Of a stretch of DNA of 64,000 nt, positions 3 to 63,840 are shown one piece after another; within the stretch, counting starts at the first letter, position 1; each line of letters starts with the position of its first letter. Location: the NCBI GenBank assembly GCA_963667175.2, contig CAXXXF010000015.1, forward strand, positions 160,001 through 224,000, given 5' to 3'. The stretch comes from Candidatus Latescibacterota bacterium (GTDB taxonomy: Bacteria > Latescibacterota > UBA2968 > GCA-2709665). The notes under the pieces are model-generated. The model searched no databases, had not been told where the DNA came from, and saw nothing but the letters and a program-made list of their open reading frames with translations. The position numbers and the translations under genes are program-made.

Positions 3-1979
3 CCGCCGTTTCTCAGCGCCAACCTCGGCTTCGGGGACGAACCGGAACTGGCCGGTCTCGTCGCTTCCGGCCGGATTGCCGGGAGCACGGTCGTCAGCGT
101 CGACGGCGAACACATCGGCATCGTGGGCGCCACCACCCCCGACCTGGCGTTCATCTCCAGTCCACGAAACGTGAGGCTGGACGGCCGGCTGCGGGAAGCC
201 ATCCAGGCGGAAGTGACCGGGCTGGCGCGACGCGGCGTGAGTATCATCATTCTGATCAGCCACCTCCAGTCCATCAACAACGATCTGGAACTCGCCAGGC
301 AATTGCGGGGCGTGGACGTGGTGATCGCGGGCGGCGGCGACGACGTCCTGGCAAATCCAGGCACGCGTCTTATTCCCGGCGACGAAGCCGAGATTTCCGG
401 ACCGTACCCGATACTCGAACAGAGCGCTGATGGAAACGACGTCCGCGTTGTTAGCACCGCGGGGAATTATCGTTACGTTGGACGGCTCGTGGCCGGTTTC
501 AATGCTGCCGGCGTCATTACGTCAATCGACCGGGACGCCAGCGGTCCGGTGCGGGTGGCCGGCGGCGATCAGCCGGATGCCGTAGACCCCGACGTCGAGG
601 TCCGTAACCGTGTCGTCGCCCCGGTCATCGATGCCCTTGCTTCCCTTTCTTCCAACCCGGTGGGAACGTCGAGCGTTGTGCTCGACGGCGTGAAGAGTAG
701 AATTCGAACCCGGGAGACCAATGAAGGCAACCTGGTGGCCGACGCCCTCCGGTGGCAGAGCGCACGGCTTGCATCGTCGTTCGGCGTTCCCGTTCCACAG
801 GTCGGCATCGTGAACGGAGGGGGAATACGCAACGCCAGCGAAATTCCCGCCGGCGCACTATCCGAACTCACGACCTTCGATATGTTGCCATTTCCCGACT
901 TCGTCGCCGTCGTGCCCGCCGTTCCCGCAACACAATTCAGGGAAATCATGGAAAACGCGGTCTCCAAGGTAGAAGACGCCTCGGGGCGATTCGCCCAGAT
1001 TTCGGGCTTCACGATGGTCTGGAATCCCGACGGCGTCGCCCAGGAACTGGATGAGAGCGGAAACGTCAAGCGACGCGGCGGCCGGATCGTGAATATTACC
1101 CTCGACACGGGCGCCGGCATCGTCGAAAACGGAAACGTCGTATCCGGCGCGCCGGACATTCACGTGGCAACCGTCGACTTTCTCGCCAGGGGCGGCGACC
1201 AGTACCCCTATCGGGGCGCCCGCTCCACGCGTCTGGGCGTGACCTACCAGCAGGCGCTTGTCAACTTCATCAGGGAAGCCCTCGGCGGCCGCATCACGGC
1301 GGCGGCTTATCCGGCAGGGGGACATGGCCGGATTGCCACCGGACAACCGGCGCCGACGGACCGCCCGAACGTCCGCAATCGTTCTGTCGTACACGTCTTC
1401 CTCACGGGAGACGGCGGGCCTGTACCGGACGCCCGGGTCGAATTCTCCCGTTCCGTCTCCGGCCGTGCGAAGGTCTACAGGTGGAGAGGAACGACCGATG
1501 CCGAAGGCCGCGCCACAATAGAAATCCGACCTGAAAACCGCCGAAGCGTCTCGGGCTACTACGCGGTCCGGGCGGTGGATATCGCGGGCCATGCGTTCTC
1601 CAGTTGGGAGAGCGTCCCGATCAACAGCGGGCGGGAAATCACACTCCTCCTGTCGGTGGGCGGCGTCGCCCGCGTGGAAGAGGAACAACCGCTGGCCGCG
1701 GAGACCCTGGCGCTTTACCCGAACGCCCCCAACCCGTTCAACCCGTCCACCCAGATTGTCTATCGGATCCCTGAGCCCGGGCAGGTCGACCTCAGGGTCT
1801 ACAACCTGCTGGGCCAGCAGGTCCGGGTTCTGGTACGGGATCACCAGGAACCGGGCCGGTACGAGGTCCCGTGGGACGGAAGGGACGGGTTCGGGCGTTA
1901 CGTTTCCAGCGGCGTTTATTTCTATCGACTGGCGCATCCGGCCGGCACACACACCAAACGCATGCTCCTGGTCAAGTAA
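3..1979 (+). CDS. 5'-nucleotidase family protein (metallophosphoesterase + 5_nucleotid_C) with C-terminal FlgD-Ig/secretion-sorting-like domain; 5' partial
   Basis: Frame open from base 3 (PFLSAN...IGIVGATT); motifs DVVIAGG, RTRETNEGNLVADA, NGGGIR, GRFAQISG, DFLARGGDQY; C-terminal LYPNAPNPFNPST...WDGRD...SGVYFYRL...KRMLLVK. Confidence 0.85.
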   Translation, partial: PPFLSANLGFGDEPELAGLVASGRIAGSTVVSVDGEHIGIVGATTPDLAFISSPRNVRLDGRLREAIQAEVTGLARRGVSIIILISHLQSINNDLELARQLRGVDVVIAGGGDDVLANPGTRLIPGDEAEISGPYPILEQSADGNDVRVVSTAGNYRYVGRLVAGFNAAGVITSIDRDASGPVRVAGGDQPDAVDPDVEVRNRVVAPVIDALASLSSNPVGTSSVVLDGVKSRIRTRETNEGNLVADALRWQSARLASSFGVPVPQVGIVNGGGIRNASEIPAGALSELTTFDMLPFPDFVAVVPAVPATQFREIMENAVSKVEDASGRFAQISGFTMVWNPDGVAQELDESGNVKRRGGRIVNITLDTGAGIVENGNVVSGAPDIHVATVDFLARGGDQYPYRGARSTRLGVTYQQALVNFIREALGGRITAAAYPAGGHGRIATGQPAPTDRPNVRNRSVVHVFLTGDGGPVPDARVEFSRSVSGRAKVYRWRGTTDAEGRATIEIRPENRRSVSGYYAVRAVDIAGHAFSSWESVPINSGREITLLLSVGGVARVEEEQPLAAETLALYPNAPNPFNPSTQIVYRIPEPGQVDLRVYNLLGQQVRVLVRDHQEPGRYEVPWDGRDGFGRYVSSGVYFYRLAHPAGTHTKRMLLVK

Positions 1980-2163
1980 CGATCGGCACAGACCTGACGC
2001 ACAGTCAAAGAACCGGGCGATCGACGTGCTGATCGCCCGGTTCAATTTGCAGAGACCACGCGGACTGGTTTGCCACGGGCATCTCCCGGGTTGGATGTGA
2101 ACGCCGGGCGGCCCTCGTGCACGCCACGTCGGACCGTCGACTTCCTTCCGGACTTCTGTTCAC

Positions 2164-2192
2164 TTGACGAAGCAGACCATTTCCGGTATATT
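2164..2192 (+). promoter_or_regulatory. sigma70-type promoter for the uORF-lipoprotein-TBDR unit
   Basis: TTGACG-N17-TATATT, 45 nt upstream of ATG 2238. Confidence 0.6.
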
Positions 2193-2237
2193 TTGGTTCT
2201 ATCCAAGTTCGTTCTGCGCTGATCTGGAGACCGCAGG

Positions 2238-2531
2238 ATGTTTTTTTCCACCGGACGGATTCATCCGGTTGTTCTTTTCGCGGTGGCGATATTCGCGGCC
2301 TACCTCGCGGTATTCCTGCTTGCCGCCTTTCCCGAACACGATCACGATCAACAATGTCACGATCACGAACAGTGTACGGTCTGCACATGGTTCAATAGCC
2401 TCAGCGTCGTCTTGCCGGCAATATTGGCGGTGCAACTTTGCTTTCTTTATTTCCGGCAGTTCTTCTCCTCGTGTCGCGCACCGCGCAATTCCTTCCTGCT
2501 TCCCGATGGCCGCGCACCTCCCGCGTCCTGA
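2238..2531 (+). CDS. DUF2946-like leader protein (TM/signal segment, His-rich CxxC, C-terminal RAPP)
   Basis: GGAGA RBS; hydrophobic N-terminus, EHDHDQQCHDHEQCTVC, ends DGRAPPAS; lies upstream of a TonB-dependent receptor operon as CruR/CutF-type uORFs do. Confidence 0.75.
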   Translation: MFFSTGRIHPVVLFAVAIFAAYLAVFLLAAFPEHDHDQQCHDHEQCTVCTWFNSLSVVLPAILAVQLCFLYFRQFFSSCRAPRNSFLLPDGRAPPAS

Positions 2532-2549
2532 TCCATCCTCCCGTGTCTA

Positions 2550-2730
2550 ACAGCCCGTTGAAAAAGCCCATCCGGGCTACGTCCGGCCCTTGTGGCCGAA
2601 TAACTGCGTTGCCTGCCTGCGGCAGGCAGGCGCTCCCTCCCCGAATCCAGGGATTCGCGTCGGTCGCGCGCCTTGTCTTCGGCCACAATGACTCGGCCTC
2701 GCCTGCAGAGCGACTTTTTCAACGGACTGC
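2550..2730. mobile_element. MITE-like element family A, copy 1
   Basis: TIRs ACAGCCCGTTGAAAAA / TTTTTCAACGGACTGC, flanked by TA on both sides; homologous to 13866-14060, 36845-37000 and partial copies. Confidence 0.8.
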
Positions 2731-3042
2731 TAAGAGACACGTCCTTAAACGTTACAAGGTCGTTTCCACATCAGTAACTCCGGCTTGGGACTTTGTCCGA
2801 ATCCGTATGAGCAGGAGAGCGGAACTTTCCCGCGCCGCGGCGGGCTTCAGTCTGCCGGGATCGGCATCGTGCCATCCTCCGCTTTCTCCGCAGGGCGTCT
2901 GCTGCAGCAACGGCAGGGCTGTCGCCTGAGGCGTCGGCATGGCGCCAATATGTCGTCAGATCGGGTTCAGGTCATGCACGCAGGCGGCTGCCCATGCCAG
3001 GTACGGGGTGCGTTAAATAAGCTCTTATACAGGAGAAAATCG

Positions 3043-4293
3043 ATGTTCAGCACGCTGAGAACGAAAAAACCGCATCACTGGATCGCAGCCGTAGCTGCAG
3101 CGGTCATTCTGGCCGGTTGCGGCAAGGATGACCCCCTGACGACGCAGGAAGAACACTATGAAGCCGAAGGCCTCGTGCTCATCGACGGCGGCCAGCGGTT
3201 CTTCCGCTATTTCCAGGGCAGGATCGACTCGGGCGACGGCCGGGCGGAAGCCCTGGAGGTCGCTCACGGCGAAGTCACCAACAAGTGGAGCATCCGCTTC
3301 CTGGACGAAGACGGAAACGAAATGGCGCCTCCCACCGGCGAGGATTTCAGTTTCACGTGGGAAATTGAGGACAAGTCCATCGTCGAAGTCGTCCAGGAAG
3401 CGGGAGAAGCGGGCCAGTTCGTCTTCGCCCTGCGCGGTCTGGAACACGGCGAGACCACCATCACGCTTCAAATCTCGCACGAAGGCCACGTGGACTTTAC
3501 CACACGGCCCATCCCCGTGCACGTGGAAGAAGAGTTTGAGGCGGAAGGGCTTGTCATCATCGAATCGGGCTTTCGATTCTTCCGTTATTTCAAGGGAGAA
3601 ATCGACTCTGGCGAGGGCCGTGCGGAAGTCCTGGAAGCGCCGATCGGCATGACGCCTCACTGGCGCATCATGTTCCTGGACGAACACGGCGATGAAATAG
3701 ACCCGCCGGACGATCCCGAGTTCACCTTCGGCTGGACCATTGCCGATCCCGACATCCTCGAAGTCGTCCAGGACGAGGGGGACGAGGGTTCGTTCGAATT
3801 CCACCTGCGCGGCTTGCACGAGGGCGAAACCACCATTGTGCTTAAGGTCGAACACGACGGACACACGGACTTCAGCACCCAACCCATCCCCGTGCACGTG
3901 GAATCACAAGAGGGGCAACACGAGGAACCCGTGGGCGTGCGGCTCAAGGAGGAAGACAGCGGTGAGTTGCTCACGCAGGCGCCCTTAAAGGGAGAGGGTT
4001 CAGCCACCGAAGACCTGACGGTTGCCGCAGGCGACACCACCGACCACATCGCGACCGTCTTCTTTGACGAACACGACGTTGAGTTCCAGCCCGAAGCGCC
4101 CGACCATACGCTGGGCATTGCGGTGGCCGACACCTCGCTGCTCGGTATCGACCCGCCTGCAGCGCCCGAATACTGGGCTTTCAGGCTCATTGGCAAAAAG
4201 GCCGGCGCCACCACCATCGCGCTTTCCATTCTCCACGACGGAGAGACGGAGGAAGAGTTCGCGCCGGTCTCCGTGACGATCACCGCGCCGTAG
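3043..4293 (+). CDS. Lipoprotein with three tandem ~125-aa beta-rich (Ig-like) repeats carrying HxGHxDF motifs; putative surface metal-binding partner of the TBDR
   Basis: AGGAG RBS before ATG 3043; lipobox LAGC; repeats begin EAEGLV and end HEGHVDF..PIPVHV / HDGHTDF..PIPVHV / HDGETEE..PVSVTI. Confidence 0.8.
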   Translation: MFSTLRTKKPHHWIAAVAAAVILAGCGKDDPLTTQEEHYEAEGLVLIDGGQRFFRYFQGRIDSGDGRAEALEVAHGEVTNKWSIRFLDEDGNEMAPPTGEDFSFTWEIEDKSIVEVVQEAGEAGQFVFALRGLEHGETTITLQISHEGHVDFTTRPIPVHVEEEFEAEGLVIIESGFRFFRYFKGEIDSGEGRAEVLEAPIGMTPHWRIMFLDEHGDEIDPPDDPEFTFGWTIADPDILEVVQDEGDEGSFEFHLRGLHEGETTIVLKVEHDGHTDFSTQPIPVHVESQEGQHEEPVGVRLKEEDSGELLTQAPLKGEGSATEDLTVAAGDTTDHIATVFFDEHDVEFQPEAPDHTLGIAVADTSLLGIDPPAAPEYWAFRLIGKKAGATTIALSILHDGETEEEFAPVSVTITAP

Positions 4294-4303
4294 CAGAAAA
4301 CGC

Positions 4304-4333
4304 GGCGGGAGGGTTCTTCTCGCCCTCCCGCCC
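4304..4333 (+). terminator. GC-rich hairpin between lipoprotein and TBDR genes
   Basis: GGCGGGAGGG...CCCTCCCGCC inverted repeat, no U-tract. Confidence 0.35.
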
Positions 4334-4490
4334 CTCTCCGGGTCAGGCTACGTCCCCATAGGCGTATAACCGACCCGGCGCTTTGGCATTTCGCAGGCAT
4401 GTCCGCAAATCCGAAGTTCGTCCGCCGCGCAGGCGGTTGCCCACGCGGAATTCGGGGCGAAGTGAGATTTCCATATACAGGAGGACATGA

Positions 4491-6737
4491 ATGTCCAGCA
4501 CGCTGAAAGCGAAAACACCCAATCCATGGATAGCCACGGCAGGCGTTCTTGCCGTGTTCCTGTCCGTGTCCTGTCTGGCCGGGCTCAGCTCGGCCGCTCA
4601 GGCGGTGTTGATCGAAGGGTATATCTTCGACAGCGAGTCCGGACTCCCCATCCGGAACGTGAACGTCCAGCCCGCGGAACCCGCCGCGGGCACGTCTACC
4701 GACGAAAAAGGCCGGTTCGTGCTTCACCTGTCTCCAGGTGTCTATCGGCTGTCCTTTACGCACGTCGGCTATCGGGAAATGCGCCGCGAACTGAACGTCT
4801 CGGGAACGAAGCATCCTGTTGTCTATCTGGAACTGGCGCGACTGGACCTCAAGCTGGATCCCATCGACGTCGTGGCCAAACGCGCTGAAACCCGGTTTGA
4901 CGAACTCAAGCAGGCAACCCGCGTGCTTTCGGGCGACGAACTCAAGAAGAAATATAGCATGACGTTGGCCGAGACCATGAAAAACGAACTCGGCGTGGCC
5001 ATCCGCAGCATGGGTCCGGCGCCCGCCCGGCCGGTCATCCGCGGCCTCAGCGGGGACCGCGTCCAGATCAACGTCGACGGCATCGAGTCCCAGGACCTCT
5101 CATCCACGTCCTCGGACCACGCGGTCACGGTGGAGACGTTCAACGCGGAACGCCTGGAAATCATCCGCGGACCCCGCACGCTGCTCCACACGACCACGGC
5201 CGGCGGCGGCGTCATCAACGTCGTCAAGCACAAGATTCCGGAAACGCGACCACGGCGTTTCTTCGGAAGCGTCGGCGCCTATGGAGAGACGGTCAACCGG
5301 GGCTATTTCTCGTCCGCCGCCCTCACCGCGCCCCTCGGGCCGTTGGCGCTTTACGCCGAATCCACGTACCGGGATACCAGGGACATCCGGACCCCGGTCG
5401 GCAGACTCGCCAATACCCCCATCAACACCAATACATATACACTCGGCATGTCCTATGCGGGCGACCTGGGCTACTTCGGGGCTTCTTTCGATCAGTTCGA
5501 AACGCAATACGGCATTCCGGGCGGATTCATCGGCGCCCATCCCAACGGCGCGGACCTCGATATCGTGCGGCGGGTCTTCGACGGGAAGGCGGTCTATCGG
5601 TTCGACGGCCTTAAGATAGACCGGGCCGAGGTAGGTTTCGCCAGGGCCTATTACTACCACGTCGAGTACGAGTCCAGCGGCAGCATCGGATCCGAGTTCC
5701 TCTTTCATGACTACAGCGGTGAACTCAAACTCTACCTGAACCCGGGAGATCAGGAACACAACACCGTTCTCACCTCCGGTTTTCAACACAGAAACCTGAA
5801 ACTGGGGGGGTTTGTCTTTACCCCTCCCACGCGAAAGCAGGATCTCAACGTCGGGTTGTATCACGAGACGACCTACCGCAATATCGAACTTCAGGCCGCC
5901 GCCAGGTACAACTATACCACCTTCGACCCGCGCCTCACCGCGTTCTCCAACACGAGCCTGGACGTAGACCGCGCCTTCCATACCTGGTCCGCGGCCTTCA
6001 GCCCGCTCGTGCCGGTCACCGACCAGCTGACAGCGGGCATCAGCCTCAGCCGTTCTCAACGCGCCCCCACCATCGAGGAACTCTACAACGAGGGACCGCA
6101 CCTGGCCGCATTCACCTTTGAGATTGGCAATGTGGAACTCAACGCCGAACGCAGTTTCGGCCTGGAGGCCTTCCTCCACTTTCTGCAACCGGGCTTCGAC
6201 CTGGTCGTCACGGGATTCTGGAACGAGTTCGGCAATTACATCGTGCCTCGAAATACGGGAAAAATCAACTATTCGAAGCTCCTCCCCATCTACGCCGCCG
6301 ACGGCATCGACGCGAGAATGCTGGGCGTGGAAAGCCACATGAAGTGGCGTCCGAACGCGCGCGTGGAACTGGAGATGAACCTGAGCCACGTGCGCGGGGA
6401 GAACCGGGACGAACGCATTCCCCTGCCCGAAATACCGCCGCTCAAGTTCGCTGGCAGCGCGACCTACAGGCACCCCTGGTTAAGCGCGGGAGGAACCGTG
6501 GAATGGGCCGCGGGACAGAAGCGCGTGGATACCTACGAAGATCCCACCGACGGTTATACCGTCTTCGGCGTTACCATTCAGCGCGACTTCCTCGCGAATC
6601 AGGCCCGCCACAGCGTTATCCTTTCCCTCGAGAATCTCTTCGACGTGGAATACCGGAACCACCTGTCGCGCGTCCGATCCGTGATGCCCGAAACGGGCCG
6701 CAGCCTGAAATTGCACTACAGGATGTATTTCTTTTAG
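4491..6737 (+). CDS. TonB-dependent receptor with N-terminal carboxypeptidase-regulatory-like domain, ZnuD-like
   Basis: Signal peptide; plug motifs GPAPARPVIRGLSGDRV, SSDHAVT, IEIIRGP-like; ELYNEGPHLA; YRNHLSR; C-terminal F. Confidence 0.9.
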   Translation: MSSTLKAKTPNPWIATAGVLAVFLSVSCLAGLSSAAQAVLIEGYIFDSESGLPIRNVNVQPAEPAAGTSTDEKGRFVLHLSPGVYRLSFTHVGYREMRRELNVSGTKHPVVYLELARLDLKLDPIDVVAKRAETRFDELKQATRVLSGDELKKKYSMTLAETMKNELGVAIRSMGPAPARPVIRGLSGDRVQINVDGIESQDLSSTSSDHAVTVETFNAERLEIIRGPRTLLHTTTAGGGVINVVKHKIPETRPRRFFGSVGAYGETVNRGYFSSAALTAPLGPLALYAESTYRDTRDIRTPVGRLANTPINTNTYTLGMSYAGDLGYFGASFDQFETQYGIPGGFIGAHPNGADLDIVRRVFDGKAVYRFDGLKIDRAEVGFARAYYYHVEYESSGSIGSEFLFHDYSGELKLYLNPGDQEHNTVLTSGFQHRNLKLGGFVFTPPTRKQDLNVGLYHETTYRNIELQAAARYNYTTFDPRLTAFSNTSLDVDRAFHTWSAAFSPLVPVTDQLTAGISLSRSQRAPTIEELYNEGPHLAAFTFEIGNVELNAERSFGLEAFLHFLQPGFDLVVTGFWNEFGNYIVPRNTGKINYSKLLPIYAADGIDARMLGVESHMKWRPNARVELEMNLSHVRGENRDERIPLPEIPPLKFAGSATYRHPWLSAGGTVEWAAGQKRVDTYEDPTDGYTVFGVTIQRDFLANQARHSVILSLENLFDVEYRNHLSRVRSVMPETGRSLKLHYRMYFF

Positions 6738-6810
6738 TCCCGAGCAGACAATCGAAGCAGATGCGCCACCCATCCGATGTTGGCAGCGTTGGTTGATCTC
6801 CGGCAATTCA

Positions 6811-6842
6811 AAGCCCCGGATCCAAAAGCCGATCCGGGGCTT
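6811..6842 (+). terminator. Hairpin/terminator after TBDR
   Basis: AAGCCCCGGATC-N8-GATCCGGGGCTT. Confidence 0.55.
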
Positions 6843-6869
6843 GCACTTTTTATATTCAGGCTTTATCTT
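6841..6869 (+). promoter_or_regulatory. sigma70-type promoter for TauD-like gene
   Basis: TTGCAC-N17-TATCTT. Confidence 0.4.
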
Positions 6870-6977
6870 TCAGGGACAGAAAATCGTAACGAATACGTGG
6901 CAGATGATGGCAACGTGTGCCCGTGGGGATAGCGAGTAAAGGGAAGACGAACAGACACGACAAGGAAGGTTTCTCAG

Positions 6978-7916
6978 ATGTTGTCACACGAAGTTTTCCG
7001 CGAGCGGGCATGGCGGACCGACAGTATCGACGATTCCGCAGCCTGGCACTACACGCTGTCCGAGGATTGTCTTTCCAACCTCAGGCGCATCATCCGGCAC
7101 GCGCGGGGGCATACCGGACCGATCACGGAGATTTCCCTGCCGGACGTCACGTCCAATGGCTGCGGAGAATGCCTTCAGCCGGCACGTGACGCTCTGAGTT
7201 CTGGACGGGGGTTTGCGATCGTCGAACGGGCGCCTTGCGAAGTCGAGGATGCGCTCGCGATGTACTGGGCGGTCGGCAACTTCCTCGGAAGCCCCATGGC
7301 GCAGAATATCGAAGGAACGCTGCTGTACGACGTGCGGGACACGGGCATGGACGTGGCACAGGGCGCCAGGTTTTCAGTGACCAACGCAGAGAGCACGTTC
7401 CATAACGACAATGCCTTCGGCAAGCCGCTGCCCGACGTCGTGGGACTGCTCTGCGTGCGCACGGCAATTTCCGGCGGACAGAGTCAGCTGATCAGCGGCT
7501 ACGCCCTCCATAACGAGTTGCTGGAAAATCACGCCGACGTCCTTGAAATCCTGTATCGACGGTTCTATTTTGATCGTCGAGGACAGTTCGAAGCCGGGGA
7601 ACCGCCAACGTCTGAATTCCCCGTTTTTCAGTGGCACAGCGGGGAATTGACGCTCCGGTATTTATACTACTACATCCAGGTGGGTCACGAGCGCGCGGGC
7701 AAATCACTGACCGCGGATCAAAGAAGAGCGCTGGGCGTTGTGGAAGCGCTGCTGCGCCGCGAGGACTTCAGGGTGGAGTTCAATCTGCAACCGGGTCAGA
7801 TGCTGTTCACGAATAACCGCTGGATCCTGCACAATCGCACCGCATTCGAGGACCATCCCGACCCGGAACGCCGCCGGCATTACGTGCGGCTCTGGCTGCG
7901 CCGCCGCGGCCTGTAA
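6978..7916 (+). CDS. TauD/TfdA-family Fe(II)/2-oxoglutarate dioxygenase
   Basis: HND (HxD), DVVGLLC, NNRWILHNRTAF, RRHYVRLW motifs. Confidence 0.85.
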   Translation: MLSHEVFRERAWRTDSIDDSAAWHYTLSEDCLSNLRRIIRHARGHTGPITEISLPDVTSNGCGECLQPARDALSSGRGFAIVERAPCEVEDALAMYWAVGNFLGSPMAQNIEGTLLYDVRDTGMDVAQGARFSVTNAESTFHNDNAFGKPLPDVVGLLCVRTAISGGQSQLISGYALHNELLENHADVLEILYRRFYFDRRGQFEAGEPPTSEFPVFQWHSGELTLRYLYYYIQVGHERAGKSLTADQRRALGVVEALLRREDFRVEFNLQPGQMLFTNNRWILHNRTAFEDHPDPERRRHYVRLWLRRRGL

Positions 7917-9819: not shown

Positions 9820-9952
9820 GAATTCTCCTTTCGGCAATCACCTCCATTTGCTATCTTCCGTGGCCAACGCTGAACAAAAAAACAACGCGCAAACCACAAA
9901 TCAAGGAATTCTTTAACCCGAGTAGCTGTTGTCCCGGAGAGAAGGCGGGAAC

Positions 9953-10216
9953 ATGCTTCCTATCCTCGATCGACTCCTGGCCGCATTTGCGACAATCCTT
10001 CTGCGGTTCTACCGGTTATTTGTCTCTCCTTTTTTACATTTCGTTTTCGGTCCCGGCAGCGGGTGCCGGTTTTATCCCACGTGCTCCCGGTACGCGCGTG
10101 ATTGCTTTCGGCAACATTCCGTTCCTGTCGCCCTGTTTCTGTCGGTCTCGCGAGTGCTGAAATGTCATCCCTTTCACCCGGGGGGATTTGATCCCGTCCC
10201 GCCGAAGCGCCAATAG
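9953..10216 (+). CDS. yidD: Membrane protein insertion efficiency factor YidD
   Basis: CRFYPTCS and CHPFHPGGFDPVP signature motifs. Confidence 0.9.
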   Translation: MLPILDRLLAAFATILLRFYRLFVSPFLHFVFGPGSGCRFYPTCSRYARDCFRQHSVPVALFLSVSRVLKCHPFHPGGFDPVPPKRQ

Positions 10217-10468
10217 ACGCGACACCCGTCAACGCCGGGCGCCCTGCCCTCCGAAGCAAGACCATCGACGGCTTCGGGACCACCCTGGCGATGCCCGGCT
10301 TTGGCCCGCGTGTCCGTTCAGACCTCCCCGTACCTTCGCTTGCTGCGGCCAGCGAGGCATTTCCCCCGCCTTTCGATACGGCGCCCCTCATCTGAGCGCC
10401 GGAGGGCCTTCAACCTTCCTGACCCGGACGCTGTCCAGCTCACACTTCCCACCCCCTCCGCCACCCTC

Positions 10469-10497
10469 TTGACTTGATATCGAAAAATCATTATCGT
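10469..10497 (+). promoter_or_regulatory. sigma70 promoter overlapped by a Fur-family-like box
   Basis: TTGACT-N17-TATCGT containing GAAAAATCATTATCG (right half AATCATTATC identical to the Fur consensus). Confidence 0.5.
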
Positions 10498-11019
10498 TAA
10501 TTTCGTGAGGGTCGCGTCCTCTTTCCGCTCCTGCCGTGAGCGCGACGCCATCGACATCATTCGCGGACCACCCCCACGTCACGGATCGGTTGGTCGATCA
10601 CGACGGCGACGCGATTCCACTCGACGACGGCTGGGTGGGGTCAGCCGGTCGAAGCAGGTCCTCCAGTCCTCCCCGGAGATGCCCGGGTTTTCCCGCCACT
10701 TGATCGTGATTGTCTCGCAATCCTCGCATGCCGGAATCCGTCACGGCCCAACGGCAAGAAACGCAGATCGTGCGGACGTTTGTTGTATAAGTGGAGTTCT
10801 CACGCACGGCACAACCTTCATCTTTCCCGTAATAATGAACCGGGTAAAGTCCCGGTTTTACCGATCGTGTGGAGTGCGTCTCGCTCTACACGTCGGAACC
10901 GGAGACAGGTGTATACGGCGGGAGCGACGTCCGAAGTCCCTCCGCGCAAGCATTCCGGGGCGTGCGCCGCCATCCGGACCTATACTTGGTCCCGCTGTTT
11001 CACAGGGAGAAGAGAGAGC

Positions 11020-11328
11020 ATGTTGATCAACACGTCACTACGCCGCCCGAACCTCGAACGGGTACGACGCATCAAGGAGGCATTGCGCGAAGCGCTAGGA
11101 CTCTCCCCTGACGCGACGGTCACGGTCACCGAGCTGGCTTGTCTCGAAGAAGGCTGCGCCCCCGTCGAAACCGTGATCGGCCTGCTTCGGCCCGATGCGC
11201 CACAGCTTCAGCATAAGTTACACAAACCCATAGACGCCGTTGACGCCAGGGACCTGATCCAGGTCTGCAAGGCGTGGGGGTTCGACGTCCGAATTTCAAT
11301 ACTCGCACATCGGCTCCGGGAGAACTAG
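11020..11328 (+). CDS. Small Cys-containing protein of the type found beside COG0523 GTPases
   Basis: ELACLEEGCAPVETVI motif; ATG after GAGAGAG; abuts the COG0523 remnant. Confidence 0.6.
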   Translation: MLINTSLRRPNLERVRRIKEALREALGLSPDATVTVTELACLEEGCAPVETVIGLLRPDAPQLQHKLHKPIDAVDARDLIQVCKAWGFDVRISILAHRLREN

Positions 11329-11592
11329 ATGAACACGCCGCGAAAAGTGCCTGTTTCCATCCTCACCGGCTTCCTCGGCTCTGGCAAGACGACCCTGCTC
11401 AACCGGATCTTGAGTGAGGAGCACGGCAAGCGCATTGCCGTGATCGAGAACGAGTACTGCGAGGTCGGCATCGATCAGGCGCTCGTCATCGACGCTGACG
11501 AAGAGACCTTCGAGCGCAATCAGCTCGTCTTCAACGGCCGCTACCTCGATGAGCAGAGCATGCGGCGGGGGTTCGAAGCATGTCTGATGTGA
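11329..11592 (+). pseudogene. COG0523/CobW-family GTPase with large in-frame internal deletion
   Basis: Walker A GFLGSGKT and IAVIENE.EVGID joined directly to the CobW_C tail RNQLVF.GR.LDE...GFEACL; only 87 aa, no CxCC motif. Confidence 0.8.
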
Positions 11593-12623
11593 ACGTCGAC
11601 AGACCCAGGGGCGTTCTTCGCCGGGGTTGGTCTGCAGCGGTCGGCGACTATGCCATCGCCGGGGGTTGGAGCCTGCGCGGTGAGGCGCTGATGGTCGGTG
11701 ACGCTGCGGGTGGCGTCTACGCCTTCGACGGCAAGTCCGGCGCGACCGCCTGGGCACGGCGGGAGGTTCATGACGGTGGTGTGCTCGCAATGGCGATCCA
11801 CCCAGGCGGAACCGCGTTCGCGACGGCCGGCCAGGACAGCCGAATCTTAATCTGGACCGCCGCCGAAGGTCAGGTAAGCCGGGCTATCGACGTCGGAAGC
11901 GGCTGGGTAGAAAACGCGGCGTGGTCGCCGGACGGCCAGTGGTTGGCGGCATCCTGCTCCCGGGAGGTCCGCGTATATGACGCCGACGGCGTGGAAGTTT
12001 GGCGATCTGATGATCATCCCAGCACCGTCAGCGCGATTGCCTGGTCGAGCTCAGGGGAGCTGGCGACGGCCTGTTACGGTCGAGTGACGTTCTTCGACGC
12101 GGCCACCGGCGAGCCACGCCAGAAGCTGGAGTGGCAGGGCTCCCTGGTGTCGATGGTCCTGAGTTCGGACGGCGATATCGTGGCCTGCGGCAGCCAGGAC
12201 AACTCGGTGCACTTCTGGCGTCGCTCCACGGAGGAGGACTCCATGATGTCGGGATATCCTGCCAAGCCGTCGGCACTGGCTTTCGACGACACCGGCGCCC
12301 TCCTAGCCACCGGGGGAGGGGAGGCGGTGACGGTCTGGAGCTTCCACGGAAGTGGTCCCGAAGGCACGCGGCCCGGCGTTTTAGAGCTTCATGTTCAGCC
12401 CGTCACGACGCTTGCCTTCGATCGCCGCTCGATGCGCCTGGCATCCGGAGGCCGTGACCGTGCCGTGGTCGTGTGGTCGCTTCAGAGAGATGGAGAAGGC
12501 GGTCCGATAGGGGTCGCGGTTGTGGAGGGCGCAGTGGCCGAATTGTACTGGCGGCCAGACGGCCGCGCGCTTGCCGCGCTCGACGCGCGGGGTGGCGTGA
12601 CGGTTTGGCGGACTCGATCTTGA
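11580..12623 (+). CDS. WD40-repeat beta-propeller protein
   Basis: Repeated ATAGQDSRILIW, ACGSQDNSVHFW, LASGGRDRAVVVW units; typical neighbour of COG0523 genes. Confidence 0.85.
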   Translation: MSDVNVDRPRGVLRRGWSAAVGDYAIAGGWSLRGEALMVGDAAGGVYAFDGKSGATAWARREVHDGGVLAMAIHPGGTAFATAGQDSRILIWTAAEGQVSRAIDVGSGWVENAAWSPDGQWLAASCSREVRVYDADGVEVWRSDDHPSTVSAIAWSSSGELATACYGRVTFFDAATGEPRQKLEWQGSLVSMVLSSDGDIVACGSQDNSVHFWRRSTEEDSMMSGYPAKPSALAFDDTGALLATGGGEAVTVWSFHGSGPEGTRPGVLELHVQPVTTLAFDRRSMRLASGGRDRAVVVWSLQRDGEGGPIGVAVVEGAVAELYWRPDGRALAALDARGGVTVWRTRS

Positions 12624-12720: not shown

Positions 12721-12879
12721 GTGTTCTGTCCCGATAATAAGTTGCCTGAATTCGGCCGTCGAGACGAGATGAATCGGCCGAAGAATGGTGAGGGAGCGCC
12801 TGCCTGCCGCAGGCAGGCAACGCCGTATTTCGGTCACAAGGGCCGGACGTAGCCCGGATGGACTTTATCAACGGGCTGT
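12721..12879. mobile_element. Chimeric MITE: family B left part fused to a family A end
   Basis: 12721-12793 matches 32361-32522 with an internal deletion; 12790-12879 matches the end of 13866-14060; junction at shared GAGG. Confidence 0.7.
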
Positions 12880-12979
12880 TATGGTAGGGTATCTCTGAAT
12901 CGTCACTTGCGCCTTTTGTGCTTTTTGTGGCCAATTTGACGGTTATCTCTTTTCGAATTGAGGCTATTCGGAGACTGCG

Positions 12980-13642: not shown

Positions 13643-13865
13643 CGTAACTCATTCACGAAAATTCCACGTTTTCTTGAATGATTGGACGATCTCTACGCCC
13701 CGTTTCGGAAGATTTCTCCGCGGTGTCGACGTTCCGGATTTTTCGATGGAAGGCAAATTGCCGCAAGAGGCACAGAAACAGCGAATCTGTTACAGGGCGT
13801 TTCGCCGAGAGACAAGGAATACCTTGTAGGGTCACGGCGTTACGACACACGCCGTTTGGTGTCTA

Positions 13866-14060
13866 ACAGTCCGTTGAAAAAGTCGCTCTGCAGGCGAGGC
13901 CGAGTCATTGTGGCCGAAGACAAGGCGCGCGACCGACGCGAATCCCTGGATTCGGGGAGGGAGCGCCTGCCTGCCGCGCTTCGCTTGGCGCAGGCAGGCA
14001 ACGCCGTATTTCGGTCACAAGGGCCGGACGTAGCCCGGATGGACTTTATCAACGGGCTGC
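13866..14060. mobile_element. MITE-like element family A, copy 2 (inverted relative to copy 1)
   Basis: ACAGTCCGTTGAAAAA...TTTATCAACGGGCTGC, TA-flanked. Confidence 0.8.
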
Positions 14061-14135
14061 TAACCCTTTTGTGCTTTTTGTGGCCAATTTAGCGGTTATC
14101 TCTTTCGAATTGAGGTTAATGGGGATCGGAGAAAC

Positions 14136-16242: not shown

Positions 16243-17343
16243 ATGGTTGGCGTATTCTCTTTTTGCGGATCACGTTTTGCCTTCTATGCAACGGTTTTTG
16301 GGTTAGTCCTCGGGATATTTGGCTTTGCCTCCGCTCAAAACGACCCGTCTGCGAGGTTAAAGACATTCACGCTGGACAAAGAGAGAAATGCGTTCATGTT
16401 TGGGGGCGGTCAGTTCAGGGCGACAGCCGAGCGTATCAATGGCAGCATTGTACTCGACCCCGATGCGTTGCAAAAGACGTTTAAGGCGACGTTCCAACTT
16501 GATATGAAACGTCTGAAAATGCAGACCGGCATTGATAAGGGGGCACAGAAGGTTTGGTGGAACGCTGACGTTTATCCGCAAGCGATCCTTCGGATTGAAA
16601 GCCTGAATGTTTCCCAGGACGTCCGACTGGTCGATGCTTTGCCCGTCACTGCCGATGCCGAGGCGACGTTTGAGTTCCATGGTGTCAAGAAGCCGGTGAA
16701 ATTGAAAGAGTTACAGTTCACCTATTTTTCAAGAAGCAGTCGGTTCGCCCAATGGTTACCCGGCGAAGTTCTACGGCTCGTCGGCGATTTTGAAATCCAA
16801 TCCTCGGACTACAACATTGAAGCTGAGCCGGAACGAACCGCTCCAATGCCGATCGATTTTGTTCTGTTTGCTATTGACAGGACCGACGCTGATGCCGCCC
16901 CTGCTGAAATGATCGGTGAGTACTTACGCGTCCCATTCAGTTTCTTGAGTGATTACTGGCTGGATGAGCCGGATTGGAGGCAGTTGGCAGATTCGGAATA
17001 CGTCGGCTCGCTCTCTTACGACTCCGAGATCCCCGATAAAGTGAAGCAACTCGATGAGAAAAAGGTCGCAATCACAGGATATATGCTGCCGATCGACGTT
17101 GACGGGGGAGAAGTGAAACGGCTCCTGCTGCTCCAGTCGACGATGTCGTGCTGTTTCGGAGTTGCACCTCGTATCAATGAGGTTATCTACGTCGAATCCT
17201 CAAGAAAGCAGAAGATTCAAATGGTGATGGACGTGCCAATCACTGTTTTTGGCAGACTGTCAGTCGGTCAGCAGTTTCGGGAGGATTTGATGCTGATGGG
17301 CGTTTATCAATTGGAGTTGGATGAGGTAAAACGTGCACGCTGA
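16243..17343 (+). CDS. YceI-like domain fused to DUF3299 (ZrgD-like) domain
   Basis: Signal peptide; FEFHGVKKPV and FEIQSSDYNI (YceI-like); IPDKVKQLDEKKVAITGYMLP...SCCFG (DUF3299-like); start uncertain (16234/16243). Confidence 0.65.
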   Translation: MVGVFSFCGSRFAFYATVFGLVLGIFGFASAQNDPSARLKTFTLDKERNAFMFGGGQFRATAERINGSIVLDPDALQKTFKATFQLDMKRLKMQTGIDKGAQKVWWNADVYPQAILRIESLNVSQDVRLVDALPVTADAEATFEFHGVKKPVKLKELQFTYFSRSSRFAQWLPGEVLRLVGDFEIQSSDYNIEAEPERTAPMPIDFVLFAIDRTDADAAPAEMIGEYLRVPFSFLSDYWLDEPDWRQLADSEYVGSLSYDSEIPDKVKQLDEKKVAITGYMLPIDVDGGEVKRLLLLQSTMSCCFGVAPRINEVIYVESSRKQKIQMVMDVPITVFGRLSVGQQFREDLMLMGVYQLELDEVKRAR

Positions 17344-17399
17344 AACGCCATCCCTTTCAACCGGGCGGATTTGATCCCGTCCCCTCGAAAAGCCCATAA
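17339..17399 (+). repeat. Duplicated 3' end of yidD
   Basis: Reads LKRHPFQPGGFDPVPSKSP* versus LKCHPFHPGGFDPVPPKRQ* in yidD. Confidence 0.85.
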
Positions 17400-17410
17400 A
17401 CCGGTCTTCC

Positions 17411-36824: not shown

Positions 36825-36844
36825 AGCCGGTTATCCACCGTTTA

Positions 36845-37000
36845 GCAGCCCGTTGAAAAACTCCATCCGGTTTGCGTCCGGCCCCTGTGACCGAAAAACG
36901 GCGTTGCCTGCCTGTGCGTGTCCGCACGCAGACAGGCGCGCCTTGTCTTCGGCCACAATGGCTCGGCCTCGCCTGCAGAGCGACTTCCTCAACGGACTGT
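36845..37000. mobile_element. MITE-like element family A, copy 3 (nusB-secA spacer)
   Basis: GCAGCCCGTTGAAAAA...TCAACGGACTGT, TA-flanked; overlaps the nusB stop codon. Confidence 0.8.
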
Positions 37001-37434
37001 TAGCGACAATCCGCGTTCTCTGCCGTAATTCCCTGTTGCCTGACCAGCGCATCGAGAATGCCGTTGATAAACGTCGGCGCCTTCTCGACACTGTACCGCT
37101 TCGCGAGTTCAATGGCTTCGTTTATCGAGACCCTGAAGGGGATATTGTCGAATGCCAGCATTTCCGTAAGCGCCATCCACAACAGGATCCGATCGATTCT
37201 CGAGATGCGTTCCAACGCCCAGTTTCTGGATATCCCCTCGACCATCCGGTTCAGTTCTTCTTTTCTCGCCCAGGCCTCCCGGCCCAGCGCCCGCGCGAAT
37301 TCTGCCGCGTCGTCCGACAGTTCCGCGCGAAGCGCCATGGTATGAAGCGTCCGGTGCACGGGGTCCCCGGAACTCTCGCTCCAATATAGCGCCTGCAGCG
37401 CAACTTCACGGGCCTTTCGGCGCGAACCCGTCAT
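37000..37434 (-). CDS. nusB: Transcription antitermination factor NusB
   Basis: [33 protein letters not shown]; ATGA overlap with ribH. Confidence 0.95.
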
Positions 37435-63647: not shown

Positions 63648-63697
63648 ATGGACGAATCCCGGGACCATGAATAGATTGGCTGCGGTTTTGTGGGATA

Positions 63698-63756
63698 ACG
63701 GTCCGTTGAAAAAGTCGCTCTGCAGGCGAGCCGGATGGACTTTATCGACGGACTGA
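63698..63756. mobile_element. Family A MITE reduced to its two ends (59 bp)
   Basis: ACGGTCCGTTGAAAAAGTCGCTCTGCAGGCGAG joined to CCGGATGGACTTTATCGACGGACTGA, TA-flanked. Confidence 0.7.
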
Positions 63757-63840
63757 TACCGCGCAGGTCGTCCAATTGCCCGCGACGGATCGTCAATGCA
63801 CGATACGGTGTGGGTTAATCATCAGTGCGAGGAGAGTCTT

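Follow-up and report, generated by a model that had tools for sequence, protein, structure and literature searches.

We analysed a 64,000-nucleotide (nt) stretch of a Candidatus Latescibacterota genome (contig CAXXXF010000015.1, positions 160,001 to 224,000; hereafter the window, with positions counted from its first letter), in which a short upstream open reading frame (uORF) precedes the genes for a lipoprotein and a TonB-dependent receptor. All three genes lie on the + strand, and the uORF (2238-2531; 97 amino acids, aa) is the first of the operon and has its own ribosome-binding site. A sigma-70-type promoter on the same strand (2164-2192) consists of a -35 element at 2164-2169, a 17-nt spacer and a -10 element at 2187-2192, and matches the consensus at 10 of 12 positions. 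The promoter scan returned 3 sites vs. 1.9 ± 1.2 in shuffled sequence, which alone is not significant; 14 of 15 related loci have the identical -35/-10 pair 5′ of their uORF. A gap of 511 nt separates the uORF from the lipoprotein gene (3043-4293; 416 aa), and a second leader (4294-4490) lies between this gene and that of the receptor (4491-6737; 748 aa). An initial annotation of this DNA had described the promoter, a uORF with a transmembrane segment, a His/Cys stretch and a terminal RAPP, a lipoprotein and a ZnuD-like receptor, and all of these were borne out at the positions given here. Three matches were obtained in an Rfam search of positions 1900-7000, all far below the gathering threshold, and therefore no riboswitch is indicated.

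The uORF product has an N-terminal hydrophobic segment (19-residue Kyte-Doolittle maximum of 2.86) and a second one at about residues 54-72. It carries His34/His36 and Cys46-x-x-Cys49, from which a 42-residue spacer leads to RAPP at residues 92-95, two residues ahead of the stop. Conservation of the uORF had been set beforehand as a point on which the proposal could fall; the frame is kept as a protein under purifying selection, with ratios of non-synonymous to synonymous substitution rates of 0.20-0.31 against 15 close copies (15/15 pairs) and 487 of 995 substitutions at third positions. We identified 93 distinct uORFs with the arrest cores RAPP (53), RSPP (21), and RGPP (19), of which RAPP and RGPP are reported as versatile and RSPP as partly permissive (PMC12992588). 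Four were left out of the sensor counts as too short, three being cut by contig ends and one being internally shortened with no Cys at the sensor distance. In the remaining 89, a Cys lies 46-50 residues ahead of the Arg without exception, and a His-x(1-3)-His pair stands upstream of this Cys in 84. The position of the second Cys is occupied by Cys in 41, by His in 13, and by another residue in 35. The conserved part of the sensor comprises His-x-His and a single Cys located 46-50 residues ahead of the Arg. The 'extra' His cluster of the initial annotation (CHDHEQ) proved to be a variable expansion, as the stretch in 10 of 16 close copies consists of HxH-x-x-CxxC alone or is longer by one residue. 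When the genus uORFs were compared by profile with a distant metagenomic uORF, the similarity fell short of significance (probability 0.7); the distant uORFs and the genus copies share an architecture but no recognisable sequence similarity, which does not establish homology. Based on its sequence features and the selection on it, we regard the uORF as a candidate arrest-peptide metal sensor.

To our knowledge, copper is the only metal for which a responsive arrest peptide has been demonstrated (CruR and CutF). CruR (Bp2923, DUF2946/PF11162) heads bfrG in Bordetella pertussis, with a distance of 49 residues from Cys90 to Arg139; both motifs and their spacing are required, and it responds to copper and only moderately to zinc (PMC9426467). 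According to the same article, neither copper nor zinc has a known riboswitch. Arrest of CruR at RAPP in vitro has been reported (PMC12992588). Like CruR, our uORF is the first gene of a transporter operon with an export signal or membrane segment, a CxxC, a C-terminal RAPP, a long intergenic region, and a stretch with more C than G (C>G bubble) at its end. It differs in scoring below the Pfam cut-off, in having 42 rather than 45 (± 1-2) residues between CxxC and RAPP, and in the His-x-His next to the membrane segment, and the second Cys is dispensable in its family. Considering the counts for the invariant Cys, the His pair, and the second Cys, we therefore describe it as a CruR-like design built on His and one Cys. 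The operon also differs from that of CruR in that a lipoprotein is the first target and the receptor has the zinc ligands of ZnuD. With CutF of Rhodobacter capsulatus and CutF-like clusters it shares an exported nascent sensor and a Pro-rich end. The downstream ribosome-binding site is masked by a stem in CutF, and the same is predicted for most relatives here. CutF carries CxxxC and PPP, its stall is induced by copper, and its target is a detoxifying oxidase (10.1101/2022.11.11.516240; 10.1101/2025.02.05.636593). The target here is an importer, and therefore the sign of the response is probably opposite to that of CutF.

RAPP uORFs ahead of TonB-dependent receptors are reported as widespread (PMC12992588). 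The supplement of that article holds nine His-bearing RAPP uORFs before zinc-labelled receptors, on which the text does not comment; its main text does not mention zinc, the searched part of the supplement gave no match to Latescibacter, Ignavibacter, Calditrich, or ZnuD, and our lipoprotein is not described with the RAPP/RGPP uORFs in the portions covered. Relatives of CutF for metals other than copper (nickel/cobalt type) have been proposed (10.1101/2022.11.11.516240). We found no zinc-responsive arrest peptide in the literature searched, with the supplements of PMC12992588 and 10.1101/2022.11.11.516240 lying partly outside the search and possibly holding family members. Our system would work like CruR and CutF without being classed as a DUF2946 member, and it is probably a variant of a switch that has to date been demonstrated for copper alone and whose non-copper relatives were anticipated in print.

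To evaluate linkage, we examined the window, 18 named loci, 40 regions chosen among genome matches, and 46 metagenome loci. These gave 109 distinct lipoprotein open reading frames (ORFs), of which 10 with <500 nt of upstream sequence were left out. An ORF ending in R[A/G/S]PP occurred within 1.3 kb upstream of 95 of the 99 remaining genes (63/66 genomic, 32/33 metagenomic). Adding a paralogue outside this set that has no uORF (L020) brings the count to 95/100. By comparison, 84 of 2305 long ORFs in the window genome (3.6%) have such an upstream ORF, as do 0 of 32 opposite-strand ORFs in the metagenome loci. A related receptor lies within 2.5 kb in 36/36 evaluable metagenome loci, so that the synteny check proposed with the initial annotation came out in its favour over a broad range of loci. 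Degenerate or missing uORFs were seen in L007, L020, L056, L076, and L137. The lipoprotein was matched in 98 of 168 genomes of the phylum, and named relatives are labelled Ca. Latescibacterota or Gemmatimonadota, consistent with the earlier guess of a Fibrobacterota-Chlorobiota-Bacteroidota (FCB)-type lineage. The promoter, the uORF, the selection on it, and its linkage to lipoprotein and receptor are evident at the level of sequence.

The lipoprotein is a member of a family that has no name and comprises at least 1136 sequence clusters. It is predicted to form three immunoglobulin (Ig)-like repeats (mean predicted local distance difference test score, pLDDT, of 88) and has four Met and a single Cys, Cys26, with none beyond this lipid anchor. 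The 'triple His-motif' described previously holds for the number of repeats and not for the His residues, since the full set occurs only in the first repeat; the N-terminal His is missing from repeat 2, and of the HxxH pair only one His is present in repeat 3. The lipid-anchor Cys, His38, His146, and His149 are invariant in 38/38 diverse domains, and Asp151 is nearly so. Fold searches returned generic Ig-like proteins (best SbsC; Z 9.7, root-mean-square deviation 2.5, 89 aligned residues) and no functional relative. Matches in a protein atlas were to unnamed clusters with recognition values below the mark, and the lipoprotein has a precomputed PF26181 match. No description of the family was found in our literature search, which most subscription papers lay outside. 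It is possible that His38, His146, and His149 form one site that replaces a loop missing from the receptor (see below). A complex prediction of the receptor (residues 118-748) with one lipoprotein repeat and zinc scored 0.06 and was uninformative.

With regard to the receptor, its best match among both the NCBIfam models and PDB entries is ZnuD (4rdr), with E values of 1.8e-63 for ZnuD vs. 1.9e-24 for OprC. The high-affinity zinc ligands of ZnuD, D99/H100/E340/H499 (PMC4557270), correspond, at a uniform offset of 14, to Asp209, His210, Glu392, and His537, and all four are invariant in 14/14 genomic and 30/30 metagenomic receptors (44/44). The copper site of OprC is CxxxM-HxM (PMC8610252), and its CxxxM motif is absent in 14/14 receptor rows and in the plug region of 30/30. 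ZnuD of Neisseria meningitidis is the best structural relative by sequence, with its high-affinity ligands kept. Unlike ZnuD, our receptor carries an extra N-terminal carboxypeptidase-regulatory-like domain, is paired with a lipoprotein, has no Fur-family operator, and is missing the His-rich loop 3, where profile positions 336-347 face residues 255-318 of the ZnuD chain. We scanned 106 neighbouring ORFs picked from about 30 loci. In several genera they included WD40, ZIP (near L071), ArsP-type permease, cation diffusion facilitator (CDF), and Fur-family genes as well as genes that we take from context to be COG0523, and many metagenome loci had unrelated housekeeping neighbours. The cargo points to zinc rather than copper. 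In one genus, a chlorite dismutase-family gene lies 3′ of the receptor gene (L057, L059, L060, L061, L063, and L064), with a CDF transporter 3′ of the receptor in two of the chlorite dismutase-family loci.

A Zur-type operator is a feature of znuD genes. The earlier statement that no Fur/Zur-like box is present at the uORF promoter agrees with our results: the best match there has 7 mismatches in 16 to an 8-4-8 palindrome (16 scored positions) derived from the genome's own sites, and related loci have 6-8 (15 close loci) and 4-8 mismatches (20 distant loci). As the palindrome was read from the sites that it finds, it shows only that operators of this sort occur in the genome and are missing at the uORF promoter. 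General Fur/Zur consensus patterns were a poor fit to the genome's sites and were unmatched at the uORF promoter. The genome has one Fur-family gene only, and NCBIfam leaves it undecided between Fur, PerR, and Zur; the term Zur-type is our own reading from context. Two perfect palindromes lie in a cluster (G000:C15:856500-866000) that holds an AztC-like ATP-binding cassette system, this sole Fur-family gene, COG0523, WD40, and a TonB-dependent receptor. In six other genomes with a uORF-led module (G040, G058, G060, G081, G084, and G087; 97-99% complete), a first look of limited sensitivity gave no Fur-family match. Among 86 loci, a site with ≤2 mismatches occurred only in L076, where the uORF is reduced to a vestige of its end, downstream of a Fur-family operator, with a Fur-family gene adjoining and COG0523 after the receptor. 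This substitution of operator for uORF is a single case, and L076 is one of the four loci without an intact uORF.

Elsewhere in the window, a palindrome with 2 mismatches at 10476 overlaps a promoter that opens a segment (10469-12623) with a small ORF, a COG0523/cobW gene, and a WD40 gene. The COG0523/cobW gene is internally deleted and encodes 87 aa that comprise only the N-terminal and the C-terminal end. A nearly identical promoter stands ahead of the module in L076.

How the signal could pass from the uORF to the downstream genes was addressed by folding and C/G scans. Among 87 folded loci (6 long ones were left out), 62 showed predicted pairing between the lipoprotein ribosome-binding site and the stretch that would lie under a stalled ribosome. 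The cognate uORF-end duplex is stronger than those with foreign start regions in 81/93 cases and than synonymous recodings in 82/93, and the paired sequences differ between clades. In the window, a pyrimidine stretch within the uORF (2463-2474, + strand) is an alternative predicted partner of this site (pair probability about 0.85), as a long-range prediction of low confidence. A C-rich, G-poor stretch spans the uORF end (2434-2590, + strand) and is a possible Rho loading site; its C/G of 2.64 is attained by 3.8% of 2353 control stops. Across the family, the C/G maximum at uORF ends has a median of 3.0 vs. 1.62 at 369 other stops, and a Rho gene is present in the genome.

The initial annotation overlooked a repeat element of ~185 bp with terminal inverted repeats (2548-2733, no strand assigned), which we take to be a miniature inverted-repeat transposable element (MITE) and which begins 16 nt 3′ of the uORF stop. 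It has 52 near-full-length copies in the genome and is missing from close relatives at this site, whereas L004, L005, L008, and L017 tolerate other insertions at the same place within the genus. Behind it, a long leader that is kept in the genus (2734-3042, + strand) ends in the lipoprotein ribosome-binding site. The element has TAA-like flanks, folds well above shuffles (z -4.6), and recurs in the window at about 12787-12881, 13864-14063, 36842-37003, and 63696-63758. None of the contigs of three sequencing runs joins across the whole element.

Taken together, we consider it likely that the uORF is a cis-acting metal-sensing arrest switch, and we lean towards a CruR/CutF-like nascent-peptide switch that has been adapted to zinc and controls an outer-membrane uptake pair. 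The uORF probably switches the lipoprotein and receptor off when the metal, most likely zinc, is plentiful. In such a mechanism, the ribosome would stall at RAPP and thereby keep the downstream genes on. In most relatives, the stalled ribosome would cover the end of the uORF and so prevent it from pairing with the lipoprotein ribosome-binding site; possibly it would also shield a C-rich Rho site, which may be the likelier route in this genus given the leader of 300-500 nt. Both routes would follow the same logic, in which stalled means on. Through the membrane segment, the His/Cys cluster would come to lie at a distance of 46-60 residues from the peptidyl-transferase centre; zinc bound there could fold it, release the stall, and turn the operon off. 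The His-bearing Ig-like lipoprotein may gather the ion and stand in for the His-rich capture loop that the receptor lacks relative to ZnuD, and the receptor would import the ion through its ZnuD-type Asp/His/Glu/His site. A wider reading is offered only tentatively, as we hold it to be somewhat doubtful: a zinc-sensing arrest peptide with a His-x-His/single-Cys site at a fixed distance from the ribosome might replace Zur across the Latescibacterota and further FCB-type lineages with few cultured members, control a new family of His-triad Ig-like lipoproteins that supply the capture loop, and be interchangeable with a Fur-family operator (L076).

Nonetheless, the zinc reading needs to be interpreted with caution considering several points that weigh against it. 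The HMM check suggested in the initial annotation placed the uORF below the cut-off of PF11162 (DUF2946; 15.0 vs. 23.7 bits), which 0 of 16 relatives reached (two at 16.3), and the receptor scored 202.5 bits against NF038289 (ZnuD), with a cut-off of 950. The uORF of the window has the full CxxC, like a copper sensor, and a SCO1/SenC gene lies upstream of L055 on the opposite strand. Sites of His, Asp, and Glu cannot distinguish zinc from nickel, cobalt, or manganese. The genome has a separate Fur-family-linked cluster with an AztC-like system, COG0523, and a receptor. It also has a lipoprotein paralogue (L020, G000:C1:43605-44867; 81% identical) that keeps the promoter and the 3′ leader with no uORF and no receptor behind it. 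In the leader of the window itself a repeat element is inserted, and the cognate pairing is weak (-8.5 kcal/mol vs. -11.0 for foreign starts; 39th recoding percentile). Moreover, C is naturally frequent in the codons for RAPP, Leu, Ser, and Pro, and the loci are related and thus not independent; both the pairing and the C/G counts are therefore overstated.

Two alternatives concern metals other than zinc. The same arrest switch could serve nickel or cobalt, or several divalent metals, which we consider unlikely: COG0523 and CDF neighbours are not zinc-exclusive, the sites are His-rich with a dispensable second Cys, and His-only CutF-like proteins ahead of HupE/UreJ genes have been proposed as nickel/cobalt binders (10.1101/2022.11.11.516240), but the exact ZnuD zinc ligands recur in 44/44 receptors, a ZIP gene lies near L071, and no HupE/UreJ or Cbi family was found among the 106 neighbouring ORFs. 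A distant CruR equivalent that senses copper and heads a copper importer would account for the CxxC with RAPP, the Cys-to-Arg distance of 46 (49 in CruR), the weak DUF2946 match over residues 32-95 (E 0.042), and SCO1/SenC near L055. This is quite improbable when the second Cys is missing in 48/89 uORFs, the lipoprotein offers only four Met and no Cys beyond its anchor, and the receptors match ZnuD far above OprC and have no CxxxM motif.

It is comparably improbable that the switch is real in the family while the window copy was weakened or rewired by the repeat insertion and the lost pairing, or that the uORF encodes a small trans-acting membrane protein. The poor pairing, the inserted element, and the uORFs that are degenerate or missing in the five loci named above would fit a weakened copy, yet the window has an intact uORF on which the same selection acts, it retains the C-rich stretch and an alternative partner for pairing, and different insertions at the same place are tolerated in four loci. 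For a trans-acting protein, the second hydrophobic segment is set against a fixed Cys-to-Arg distance, which is expected of a nascent-chain sensor. Finally, both targets are exported, and RAPP peptides that carry export signals are known to monitor Sec/YidC (PMC12992588), in line with a SecM/ApdP-type export or membrane-insertion monitor that couples lipoprotein and receptor synthesis to translocon capacity, with His and Cys being structural. The invariant Cys at a fixed distance, the His pairs in 84/89 uORFs, and targets that are metal-uptake genes and not Sec components make this very unlikely.

The module offers a zinc candidate that is open to direct testing. Its sensor occurs in several natural forms (CxxC, CxxH, single Cys), as does its arrest core (RAPP, RSPP, RGPP), and in a single locus (L076) a repressor operator has taken the place of the switch. 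The module also hints at what a large lipoprotein family without a name may do.

Repeated arrangements were observed within and around the module. The second leader (4294-4490, + strand) duplicates the 3′ part of the leader of the lipoprotein, with ~150 nt repeated 5′ of the receptor, and the start regions of the lipoprotein (3026-3086) and receptor (4474-4534) are 79% identical. In L068 (4085-5148), two different uORFs (RAPP and RSPP) stand in tandem ahead of a single lipoprotein gene. Either uORF-lipoprotein or the whole module is repeated in tandem in L071-L074, L090, L057, L059, L061, L004, and L007, with sister uORFs that differ in CxxC vs. CxxY and in His-tract length, and one lipoprotein frame among these loci is ~800 aa. 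A 10-bp GC hairpin lies 3′ of the lipoprotein stop, and a terminator-like hairpin 3′ of the receptor gene (6811-6852, + strand) comes from a consensus scan only, which detected 9 such hairpins vs. 8.5 in shuffles. Window positions 10156-10218, at the end of a short ORF (9929-10216), and 17339-17401 are 84% identical, suggesting a duplicated small gene.

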